Positions 48,085-64,000 of a stretch of 64,000 nucleotides of DNA are shown here, in pieces. The notes beneath the pieces are model-generated. The model was given only the letters and a program-made list of their open reading frames with translations. It did no database searches and had not been told where the DNA came from. This DNA comes from Bacteroidia bacterium (GTDB lineage Bacteria; Bacteroidota; Bacteroidia; UBA8524): the NCBI GenBank assembly GCA_964215915.1, contig CAXPEB010000026.1, positions 10,342-74,341 on the forward strand, written 5' to 3'. The position numbers and the translations under genes were made by a program. Numbering within the stretch: the first letter of the stretch is position 1; the number at the start of each line of letters is the position of its first letter.

Positions 48085-50448
48085 GTGTTACGGGTTTCAC
48101 TTTTTATTCTGGTGGGAATTTCAAGCTATTTTCAAATGCTTTCAGGTCAGGTGTTTGTGCAATCTTACGCAAGGGAACTAGATGTATCAGATGTTGCCGA
48201 ACAGTTACTTAATGCTACCGTGTATAGGTTGGACGGTGAATTGGGAACAATCCGAATTGAGATTGAATTGAATGATTCCAATCTGAACTATATCTATAAG
48301 TATCAGTCTGCATTCTTCATACTGCAGGATTCCATACTCTTATCAGAAAAGAAAAACCAGTTTACTTCAATAGATTCCCCGGTTCAATTAGAAGAACACC
48401 GACGTCTGTTTGTTCGTTATTCTGTGCTGGATGATGAGGATATATCGTTAGGAGAATATCTTTATGAATATAAGCTTAAGGATAATAATGGAGAGATAGA
48501 AAAAGAAAGGCCACCAATCCCCTCTCGTTTTTCACTTCACGGCACCATGAAAGTACGGTACACCTATAACAGTGCAAACTTCGAGAATAGTGCTTACCCG
48601 AAGCATTTGTTCTTTTATGAAGTTGATCCGAAGATTTCAGTGTTGGGTATTCCCCTTAATGCGAACATTCGAATTAGCCCGGAAGAAGGGAGTATTTCCA
48701 GGAAATTGTCATTTGCCAGATTCAGTTTAGATGCGGAGAAGTATCAGGAAATAAGATCACGAGCCAGAGAGGAAGTGAAGAACAGGGAAGAACAACTGAT
48801 AAATAATATAGAAAAAAAGGCCAAAGAAAAATTACTGGAGGAGAAACAGAAGCTGGAATCACAACTGGATGCGGTTAACCGTCAAATTAAGGACTCTGCA
48901 GACCGCTTCCGTCAGTTGGATACTTTCGGGAACAGAGAATGGGTAGATACATCTGCTTACCGGGAATACCTCAAGGATTCTGTTTCTGAGTTGGAGAACG
49001 ACAAACGGAAACAAATCAGGGAAGGGTTGGACTCCCTCAAGATCGTAAAGGCGCAAATCGAAAGCCGGATACAAAAAATTGACAGTACTGCAAGAACATT
49101 GCGCCAATCCATTTCTGACAGTATGGTGCATTTCAGGTCTTTGATAAAGGGGCCAGATAAACCGGTATTCAGGAATGCCGGATTTCGAGGGTATGAAATA
49201 GAAGGGTTATCCATAGGGCGGTTCTATCCCAACTTGCCAAAAACCATTGGTAGTCAAAGTTCAGTGCAGGGTGTAGATGCCGGGATTAGGCGAGATAATT
49301 GGCTGCATGAATTCAGTATCGGCAAAGTAAGCGACCTTTTTAGCAGAACTGCATCTATTGGGCTGATCAGGTATTCTGTCAGTAAAACGGAGGAGAGAAA
49401 ATACAGGATAAGGTTCACAAGCCTTTACACAGGTTCATATGGAAGGAATGCTGCCTTTAAGTTACGTAACCCTGTATTCGGATTAGAAGCACAACGTGAA
49501 CTCATAAAGAACGGCATATTGAATATAACAGGTGAAGGGGTAGTTAGCAGGTTAGTAGCATTCAACAACGGTCTTCAGGAAGGCTCTGTTGAAAGTTTGG
49601 CTTCCAGGGAGCAAGTGTTATTAATGCGACAGGATTTTTTCCCCGGATATGCCGGTGAACTCGGTGTTAATGGAGAGGTTGCCGGATTCCGCTACACATT
49701 GGCGTATTACCGAACGTCCATTAACTATACTACTGCGCTAAATCCATTCATTCTTAAACAACTGAGTACCATTTCATATGGGATAAGCAAATCGATACTG
49801 AATAATTTCCTGAGACTTGGGTTTAATGGGATGCATTCAAAAGAAGGGGAGGTATCCGAGCTTGACCAGTACAAAGCCGAGATGAGGATAAACCCCAAAC
49901 GTTCCCCCCGTTTGTCCTTATCTGCCATGACATTTGACCGGACATTTGCCGCAGGAGCATCACAAAAGTTGATAATGCTGAGAGCACAATCTGATTATTC
50001 CTTTCAACTGTTCGGAAATTTTAACCAGGTACAAACCTATTTTCACTGGCAAAGGACAAACACAAACAGAACCTCCCTTATTCAAGTATGTAATTGGGGG
50101 ATTACAGACCTGATCAGAATTAGTGAACGCATGAACCTCAACATGAGTTTCAATACGACACATTCTAAAAATGTTATCGGGAGTTCTACACAGAATATTA
50201 TTCAGAATGCAGGCGGGGTTTCGCTTAGCTATCTGATATCGGAAGCGATTCAATTCGGGATTCCGCTGAAATATTTAACAACGGGCCGCAGTTCAACCCT
50301 GGCAAGCGGTTTCTTTGCTTCATTCAGGTTCAAAGGCTTGTCTGGAGGAATACGTTACGATTTAAATTCGTTAACGACTCCAACGGAGATGGCATTATAC
50401 AATCGAAACATTAACACTATACAAACCACCTTAGGATATGCATTTTAG
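48085..50448 (+). CDS. Predicted outer-membrane beta-barrel protein with long central coiled coil (first gene of the Tc-like operon)
   Basis: GTG start (in-frame TAG/TAA immediately upstream) giving signal-like MLRVSLFILVGISSYFQMLSGQ. About 130-aa heptad-rich coiled coil (EEVKNREEQLINNIEKKAKEKLLEEKQKLESQLDAVNRQIK...). C-terminal about 400 aa of alternating amphipathic strands ending ...QTTLGYAF (aromatic C-terminal residue typical of OMP barrels). Visibly AT-rich. Confidence 0.6.
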   Translation: MLRVSLFILVGISSYFQMLSGQVFVQSYARELDVSDVAEQLLNATVYRLDGELGTIRIEIELNDSNLNYIYKYQSAFFILQDSILLSEKKNQFTSIDSPVQLEEHRRLFVRYSVLDDEDISLGEYLYEYKLKDNNGEIEKERPPIPSRFSLHGTMKVRYTYNSANFENSAYPKHLFFYEVDPKISVLGIPLNANIRISPEEGSISRKLSFARFSLDAEKYQEIRSRAREEVKNREEQLINNIEKKAKEKLLEEKQKLESQLDAVNRQIKDSADRFRQLDTFGNREWVDTSAYREYLKDSVSELENDKRKQIREGLDSLKIVKAQIESRIQKIDSTARTLRQSISDSMVHFRSLIKGPDKPVFRNAGFRGYEIEGLSIGRFYPNLPKTIGSQSSVQGVDAGIRRDNWLHEFSIGKVSDLFSRTASIGLIRYSVSKTEERKYRIRFTSLYTGSYGRNAAFKLRNPVFGLEAQRELIKNGILNITGEGVVSRLVAFNNGLQEGSVESLASREQVLLMRQDFFPGYAGELGVNGEVAGFRYTLAYYRTSINYTTALNPFILKQLSTISYGISKSILNNFLRLGFNGMHSKEGEVSELDQYKAEMRINPKRSPRLSLSAMTFDRTFAAGASQKLIMLRAQSDYSFQLFGNFNQVQTYFHWQRTNTNRTSLIQVCNWGITDLIRISERMNLNMSFNTTHSKNVIGSSTQNIIQNAGGVSLSYLISEAIQFGIPLKYLTTGRSSTLASGFFASFRFKGLSGGIRYDLNSLTTPTEMALYNRNINTIQTTLGYAF

Positions 50449-63600: not shown

Positions 63601-64000
63601 TGTTGGTTACTATTACGAAATGCGGGAAGCCCTTTTGAATTTTGATAATTCAACATGGACCAGCCTCTGGCAAATACTTCAGGACTACCGCACGAATAGT
63701 ACATTGGGAAATACGACCGGAAATTCGAATTGTCCTTCCAGTTTTGATTTTCAGTTATTCTATGCCGGTTACCAAACCTGGAAGGTCGAACAACTGGCGA
63801 GGTATTACGATTCCGTTTGTCAGAATACGGAGATTGTTGAGGGGAAAGCCCGTCGCTTTACATACGATCACGATGAAGTATTGACCGAAAATCCTCTTTA
63901 TAACCCCGACCGGGATCTGATGAAAGAGAATATCGAAGAGGAGATGGCAAGTACCTGTGGCGAACGTTGCGAAGGGTATGCCCTGTCCTGGATGCAGTCC
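60614..64000 (+). CDS. RHS/YD-repeat protein with signal peptide (TcC-like/YD-shell protein; 3' end outside window)
   Basis: Open frame from ATG 60614 to the window end (more than 1,128 codons, verified by hand translation). Signal peptide MKTKSFYFLAFALLMMNTTWVKA. YD repeats (AISYYDGSLRNRQTATV, EVIYDYLGRPV, NYVTDQNGQRSVSYVDPNGNVVAT). Cys-rich acidic segment DDCEYDPCEDCEGD. Not in the ORF track because no stop is reached. Confidence 0.75.
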   Translation, partial: MKTKSFYFLAFALLMMNTTWVKAHWEPRISSKVTVADQTLDISASASGTPIALSDWLFADLNDLANSGTGNPALMQLVDQDVVNILEAGFGESQSYTHPEYCEIEFRLRIYGYHLLGGAPDVIDIEFSDSFKIKFDPQSGFMDYPKVARNIPGDYLKLECHVLEVNYRTITSGSLGNQNITDINDLPENLYVGLSMEVDRVYDFGYEDPGNPSINFASVTAGTAIQFTPLDDLTNASSITLVSATACDGYYELSWPSIVSQGFDNYEVEWTFIEESLVTGTSPNLSFTAGFNKNSTRVQVKGNTYRIPAIYPQGFVVARVRGVTDDFYYKNTNLYKTDWSLPDEAQIGYNTATQEFTLTYTATVIFSAAECQGYAEAFNWDHSVSFAEEGKRKQAISYYDGSLRNRQTATVLSTENVPVVGEVIYDYLGRPVVQPLPVPVLDEEGLCFRALLNVSTATDEPYSWKDFDPDYQQCGPTQTGSMSTSNGASAYYSSDGSTLINTTFSDYEISNNQKQAAAFIPDAQGYPFTQVEYLPDGTGRVSRQGGVGITHQLNGVDENTDPLPGKEISYHYGNAPQTELLRLFGNEIGQYAKYQKNYVTDQNGQRSVSYVDPNGNVVATCLVGDPEAVINVGHLSSSEGENVLIPENLDNTEIRLEEGELIAVFEHVAGVDGNYQFTYTMTSPQLSGFCDNELCFDCIYDFELSIKDECGTELIPGGPKTATVGTVDYECGMEAIGFSMTPSPLVIYVTKGTTLHIEKKLKINESAYRQYEAKFLETIDDCIPSYEELYTEERAKLSDDCEYDPCEDCEGDAATRLANGDISQNEYDYTVFQCKEVCNPTPCTILMRNMIQDMSPGGQYFDNLTAYEPGVTNPDDQTRNYDWMDQTLTQQQYNDFFSEVNLENGTSYTSWEEIRYNFEDQFAFKLVQYHPEYCYYQSCIAIEETYVFDMEMLASENATEALVNGYFNPIGSNPNTTEFPAPTVKDPFFVNSSGNPVGYYYEMREALLNFDNSTWTSLWQILQDYRTNSTLGNTTGNSNCPSSFDFQLFYAGYQTWKVEQLARYYDSVCQNTEIVEGKARRFTYDHDEVLTENPLYNPDRDLMKENIEEEMASTCGERCEGYALSWMQS

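Follow-up and report, generated by a model that had tools for sequence, protein, structure and literature searches.

A cassette of seven genes in a 64,000-nucleotide stretch of Bacteroidia bacterium DNA (the window; positions 10342-74341 of contig CAXPEB010000026.1, here C26, in assembly GCA_964215915.1) appears to encode a Bacteroidota-specific polymorphic Rhs-toxin system with an envelope export module of its own. We put the probability of this reading at about 0.55, the export route being the part of it that we infer. The genome is a Bacteroidota assembly of 3.51 Mb in 118 contigs and is 92% complete. The products of the cassette, P0001 to P0007, are in order: an outer-membrane β-barrel, a secreted protein, an OmpH/Skp-like chaperone, a lipoprotein, a giant secreted protein, a smaller secreted protein and an Rhs/YD-repeat protein. 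In a comparison of 80 related loci, a conserved cassette joins the RHS/YD protein to secreted partners and to the envelope set of outer-membrane barrel, OmpH-like chaperone and lipoprotein. This arrangement had been proposed in an initial annotation made from the DNA letters, and the comparison upholds it.

The open reading frame (ORF) map of the window places the seven genes on the same strand, from 48085 to beyond the window end at 64000. Successive genes from P0001 to P0007 overlap by 11, 14, 4 (ATGA), 4 (ATGA), 1 (TGATG) and 4 nucleotides, exactly as first described, and such exact stop/start overlaps indicate that the genes are translationally coupled. Overlaps of 1 to 14 nucleotides also leave no space for an internal promoter between genes 3 and 5. 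A scan for promoter and terminator consensus sequences gave counts at chance level; it is uninformative for Bacteroidota and says nothing for or against internal transcription units. All seven proteins start with a hydrophobic, signal-peptide-like N-terminus (Kyte-Doolittle peak of 2.1-3.3 over 11 residues), in agreement with the earlier claim that every component carries a signal peptide; the call is made by this heuristic and not by SignalP.

In order to follow the cassette beyond the window, the alignment of the P0005 family was scanned over one genome per GTDB species, which gave 521 relatives, and 80 loci were fetched. Nearly all of them belong to Bacteroidota, namely: Chitinophagales, Flavobacteriales, Cytophagales, Saprospiraceae and Bacteroidales, and isolates such as Chitinophaga japonensis DSM 13484 and Longitalea luteola are among them. 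Clustering of the neighbouring genes shows the same gene order across the loci. A P0005-like gene is present in all 80, a P0002-like gene in 73, a downstream Rhs gene in 68, the lipoprotein gene in 63, a P0006-like gene in 56, an OmpH-like gene in 45 and the barrel gene in 37. The 12 loci that have no downstream Rhs gene are mostly at contig ends. As it is found in about half of the loci, the barrel is a frequent rather than an obligatory partner. Within the same taxonomic family, the P0005 family occurs in 11 of 14 genomes, often in multiple copies, and across the class its distribution is patchy. Homologues of the cassette are also found in metagenome-assembled genomes labelled Burkholderiales, Rhizobium and Akkermansia (loci L009, L039 and L058); they probably stem from contaminated bins, or else from rare transfers beyond Bacteroidota.

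The genome itself holds three copies of the cassette: the window copy on contig C26, which has the complete gene set, and one each on contigs C17 and C18. Neighbourhood conservation, which the initial annotation had put forward as a check, is seen across Bacteroidota. A barrel gene lies near each copy, although it is divergent from the rest of the cassette on C17 (19154-21475, plus strand) and on C18 (820-3627, minus strand). The P0005 paralogue on C18 (locus L006) falls into two ORFs that overlap and are read in different frames (6062-11377 and 11365-13479, both on the plus strand), which reflects a frameshift, a pseudogene or an assembly error.

The toxin assignment derives from the P0007 family. 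The reading frame of P0007 stays open up to the contig end at 80,072, and at least 3,039 amino acids of it can be read from the genome (contig positions 70955-80072; P0128). At this full genome length, RHS_repeat scores above its Pfam gathering threshold and YD repeats are visible, so that the annotation of P0007 as an RHS/YD protein is borne out. An N-terminal extension of about 1,500 amino acids includes DUF6443. Reading past 64 kb therefore gained RHS repeats, but the contig ends before the C-terminal toxin and immunity gene that were sought there; because P0007 runs off contig C26, the end of the RHS core, the C-terminal toxin and any immunity gene lie beyond the assembly. Further proteins of the family are encoded on contigs C17, C48 and C22 of the same genome. 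The RHS-associated core (TIGR03696) is present in the complete C17 copy (P0127) and in L002, a homologue from another genome. In complete copies, the core ends in a conserved "...PYxFAxNxPIxxxDxDG" motif, also read as "...NNPxxxxDxDG", and is followed by a variable C-terminal domain, and these domains are unrelated between paralogues. The C48 paralogue carries a PT-TG pre-toxin domain (PF14449, E=4e-14) and a toxin region to which no type is assigned. Its end (locus L088, 786-1565) is followed by two small ORFs of 185 and 183 amino acids (1568-2125 and 2101-2652), while in L002 an ORF of 116 amino acids stands directly after the Rhs gene. These small ORFs have no Pfam matches and are candidate immunity genes. 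The core end, the swapped C-termini, the PT-TG domain and the small downstream ORFs are hallmarks of polymorphic toxins, and as judged from sequence the P0007 family would belong among them. The Rhs protein probably forms a complete single-chain cocoon on its own, as do type VI secretion system (T6SS) Rhs effectors and the teneurins.

The genes upstream of the two giants encode the putative export module. P0001 has no meaningful Pfam family match, and belongs to a family of Bacteroidota outer-membrane proteins of about 760 amino acids (family hidden Markov model (HMM), E=1e-37). An AlphaFold model built on an alignment of 18 family members has a predicted local distance difference test (pLDDT) score of 69 overall and of about 90 over the C-terminal half, i.e. 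the barrel. It consists of an N-terminal β-domain, an α-helical hairpin of about 130 residues that forms a coiled coil, and a barrel of about 22-24 β-strands at the C-terminus. Foldseek matches the model to outer-membrane barrels, namely: SlpA, LptD, porins and SprA, the translocon of the type IX secretion system (T9SS), with E-values of 1e-6 to 1e-4. A terminal F or W, the usual C-terminal signal of outer-membrane proteins, is present in 20 of 38 members of the family. The model thus agrees with the initial annotation, which had predicted an outer-membrane β-barrel with a long coiled coil for P0001; the barrel is a large one. A weak PADLOC match of LeoBC to residues 218-346 (E=0.003) falls within the coiled-coil region; as it is probably composition-driven, we gave it no weight.

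P0002 gives weak Ig/fn3-like signals only; among the accessory genes of the cassette, its gene is the one most often conserved. For P0003, the OmpH/Skp-like assignment holds in part: the protein does match OmpH (PF03938, E=8.3e-5), but at 23.3 bits the match lies below the gathering score of 32.4. The lipoprotein assignment of P0004 is sustained by a lipobox (...LISSC) that ends at Cys16. P0006 is a member of a family of secreted proteins of about 240 amino acids, whose genes lie between the P0005-like and Rhs genes.

P0005, whose family alignment served for the scan above, has 3,858 homologues at E<=1e-5, every one of them annotated as "hypothetical" and none with a Pfam domain. Near the N-terminus of the family there is an invariant DPxTG...GxGW block (residues ~37-120, with GLGW in P0005), which is the sole feature that recalls the N-termini of SpvB and RHS proteins. 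The initial annotation had placed an SpvB/TcB domain at the N-terminus of this protein and YD repeats at its C-terminus, and neither was found. No SpvB domain appears in a Pfam scan of P0005 even at E<10 or in a search of the whole genome with PF03534, and a P0005-family profile of 17 members matches nothing in the PDB, TcB and TcC structures included, even at E<10. The YD-like content amounts to a single conserved motif at residues 2368-2400, an RHS repeat that scores below threshold (E=0.51); a regular-expression search of P0005 detected no YxYDxxGR repeats and BLAST detected no internal repeats. A region-restricted homologue search returned only Bacteroidota proteins of the same family, and HMMs of the P0005 and Rhs families, tested in both directions in this genome, gave no link between the two. 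Of the two domain types expected from profile searches, RHS was therefore detected (in P0007) while SpvB was not.

We also searched for known delivery machinery. None of the T6SS sheath (PF05591), VgrG (PF05954) or PAAR (PF05488) families was found in the genome. There is no TcA gene in the window, as stated earlier, and none of the TcA domains (TcA_RBD, TcA_TcB_BD, neuraminidase-like and VRP1) was found in the genome, an absence that is weakly supported given that the controls were silent for three families. The genome likewise has no eCIS. In the absence of T6SS, VgrG, PAAR and TcA from the genome, the cassette would have to carry its own route. The Rhs proteins of the cassette resemble T6SS Rhs toxins such as RhsA and Tse15 (PMC11461821) in being probable single-chain YD cocoons with TIGR03696, a variable toxin and candidate immunity genes downstream. 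They differ from them in having a Sec signal peptide and the long N-terminal extension with DUF6443, and the delivery partners encoded in the cassette are envelope proteins and not a contractile machine.

We infer the export by the barrel, the action of the chaperone and the role of P0005, and propose the following sequence of events. Sec would carry both giants, P0005 and P0007, over the inner membrane, whereas Tc and T6SS Rhs proteins are cytoplasmic. The Skp-like chaperone (P0003) and the lipoprotein (P0004) would hold them in the periplasm, from which they would leave the cell or be displayed via the barrel (P0001) or another outer-membrane route. The Rhs cocoon could then deliver or release its C-terminal toxin into competing bacteria. 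In complete copies, the RHS-associated core would be the autoprocessing end of the cocoon, followed by a swappable toxin domain and, downstream, by likely immunity genes. The Sec-exported partners from the same operon, namely: P0002 to P0006 and, often, P0001, would serve delivery. A role in competition is suggested because the C-termini are polymorphic and the downstream genes are immunity-like.

To our knowledge, Rhs/YD-cocoon toxins travel in only a few ways: by T6SS, by TcA injectors or, as in teneurins, by membrane anchoring. A widespread, multi-copy and Sec-exported cassette that has none of these suggests a third, undescribed envelope route for large cocoon toxins, of which the outer-membrane β-barrel, Skp-like chaperone and lipoprotein would be the building blocks. 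The large, uncharacterized P0005-like family, with more than 3,800 members, is the likely partner. The Rhs toxin family itself is known, but we found no description in the literature of the apparently dedicated Sec and outer-membrane module or of the giant partner family. If confirmed, the exit of giant folded toxin shells from Gram-negative cells would become testable in genetically tractable Bacteroidota.

Several observations weigh against a toxin system with its own export module. Some half of the loci lack the barrel gene, and where found it at times has the opposite orientation, hence it may not be dedicated to the cassette; the C17 copy, in addition, has no OmpH gene. No function or fold could be assigned to P0005: an AlphaFold model that covers its residues 1-900, built with 16 homologues, is of low confidence (pLDDT 45.6), and Foldseek of this partial model returned noise only, including a row to the Tc holotoxin (6sue_F). 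The toxin activity proposed for P0007 of the window is extrapolated from its paralogues, its own C-terminus lying beyond the contig end. Finally, the T9SS of the genome could export the cassette proteins by a non-canonical route.

The Tc toxins of Photorhabdus and Yersinia consist of a pentameric TcA injector and a TcB-TcC RHS cocoon, and their components are cytoplasmic and lack Sec signals. The cassette shares with them an RHS/YD shell whose C-terminal toxin is freed by autoproteolysis, and a giant partner protein encoded alongside. In the view of the initial annotation, P0005 might be a divergent TcB, with an SpvB domain and half of the shell, that joins a TcC-like P0007 in a BC cocoon, delivered without TcA by secretion. 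We regard this as unlikely. Apart from the N-terminal DPxTG...GxGW block, the lone C-terminal YD-like motif and the noise-level Foldseek row, its support comes from language-model features, which are weak leads only (similarity of 0.83 between the P0005 N-terminus and an SpvB cluster, and of 0.84 and 0.78 between the C-terminal part and RHS clusters). These stand against the negative SpvB and PDB searches, the lack of internal repeats and the failure of the P0005 profile to match any RHS protein in the genome; by the HMM, profile and homologue-search tests, P0005 as a TcB with an SpvB domain and YD repeats is not supported. In addition, complete members of the P0007 family have their own RHS core end and variable toxin, such that a TcB partner would not be required to close the shell. 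TcC-like RHS repeats with a variable toxin were indeed found, but they are common to all Rhs proteins and so do not discriminate between Tc and Rhs. The cassette further differs from Tc toxins in the Sec-like signals on all components and in the module of outer-membrane barrel, Skp-like protein and lipoprotein, and the "BC" analogy of the initial annotation was an overreach. It is likewise doubtful that P0005 is a convergent or deeply diverged functional analogue of TcA, i.e. a giant secreted protein for receptor binding and translocation. If it were, P0005 and the Rhs cocoon would together form an injectable, Tc-like toxin whose assembly takes place outside the cytoplasm, a Sec- and barrel-exported "ABC toxin" of Bacteroidota that reaches its targets without contractile or TcA machinery.

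We consider three other readings to be less probable still. A two-partner system similar to contact-dependent inhibition (CDI), with P0001 as a TpsB-like exporter of surface-displayed Rhs adhesin-toxins, would account for the fact that a large toxin with polymorphic C-termini is co-encoded with a large outer-membrane barrel that has a helical hairpin on the periplasmic side, as in CdiA/CdiB toxin-exporter pairs, and CDI systems also have immunity genes. It is very unlikely, however, as P0001 has no POTRA domain by Pfam and about 22-24 strands compared to the 16 of Omp85/TpsB barrels; none of the Omp85/TpsB proteins BamA, FhaC and TamA is among its best 50 Foldseek matches. Moreover, the toxin is an RHS cocoon and not a filamentous haemagglutinin-repeat protein, and half of the loci have no barrel. 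Export of the large YD proteins by the T9SS as non-canonical cargo, with the small envelope proteins as mere folding or assembly helpers, is similarly improbable. Cargo with a T9SS C-terminal sorting domain (CTD) is encoded beside the cassette, which implies that the genome has a T9SS, and T9SS-bearing Bacteroidetes have polymorphic toxins that are exported by Sec, the T9SS-linked TANFOR toxins (PMC7073777). The latter are a related concept but a different cassette: they too are Bacteroidetes-specific, large and Sec-exported, with variable C-terminal domains, in T9SS-bearing genomes, and are accompanied by immunity genes (PMC7073777), whereas the cassette toxin has an RHS/YD core and the outer-membrane, Skp-like and lipoprotein module, and an NCBIfam scan of all proteins found no TANFOR domain (TIGR02542). 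No CTD (TIGR04183, TIGR04131 or PF18962) is present in P0005, nor is a CTD found on complete Rhs homologues, the C-termini of which are toxin domains instead. Lastly, the YD shell could serve in cell-cell adhesion or contact without toxicity, its variable C-termini being recognition modules. Teneurins, which are eukaryotic adhesion receptors, share the YD-repeat β-shell fold and descend from bacterial YD proteins (PMC5851990), and all parts of the cassette are targeted to the envelope. We hold this to be highly doubtful, since the PT-TG domain, the autoprocessing RHS core ends and the swapped C-termini with small downstream ORFs are classic features of polymorphic toxins and place the cassette in a context different from that of teneurins.

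Features of the Rhs cassette, in window coordinates (nucleotides)
Feature	Position	Strand	Description and basis
P0001, predicted outer-membrane β-barrel gene	48085..50448	+	787 aa, GTG start; AlphaFold and Foldseek, family HMM
P0002, secreted protein, weak Ig/fn3-like	50438..51577	+	379 aa
P0003, OmpH/Skp-like periplasmic chaperone	51564..52103	+	179 aa; sub-threshold Pfam OmpH
P0004, lipoprotein	52100..52684	+	194 aa; lipobox
P0005, giant secreted protein	52681..59946	+	2,421 aa; Bacteroidota-specific family without Pfam domain
P0005 invariant N-terminal block, residues 37-120	52789..53040	+	invariant alignment columns, DPxTG/GLGW motif
P0005 C-terminal YD-like motif, residues 2368-2400	59782..59880	+	one sub-threshold RHS repeat
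P0006, secreted protein	59946..60617	+	223 aa; family HMM E=9e-9
P0007, putative Rhs/YD-repeat polymorphic toxin	60614..64000, continuing beyond window	+	signal peptide, DUF6443, RHS repeats
DUF6443 in P0007, residues 384-447	61763..61954	+	sub-threshold match

The GC content is 0.42-0.47 across the cassette (window positions 46000-64000) compared to about 0.50 elsewhere in the window and in the genome, and this lowering is consistent with horizontal acquisition. No tRNA or integrase signature was found near the cassette. Among public sequencing runs, no RNA run is listed with the cassette, and the sole DNA run is a marine metagenome from 2024, from which the genome probably derives.

The genes upstream of the cassette are unrelated to it and encode a major facilitator superfamily (MFS) transporter, a sulfotransferase, two T9SS cargo proteins with CTDs, a dicarboxylate symporter and a methyltransferase. 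Both cargo proteins, encoded on the minus strand at 37477-39675 and 39915-42086, have Por_Secre_tail CTDs; one of them combines fn3 with an endonuclease/exonuclease/phosphatase domain, and the other is a Lamin-tail-domain protein.

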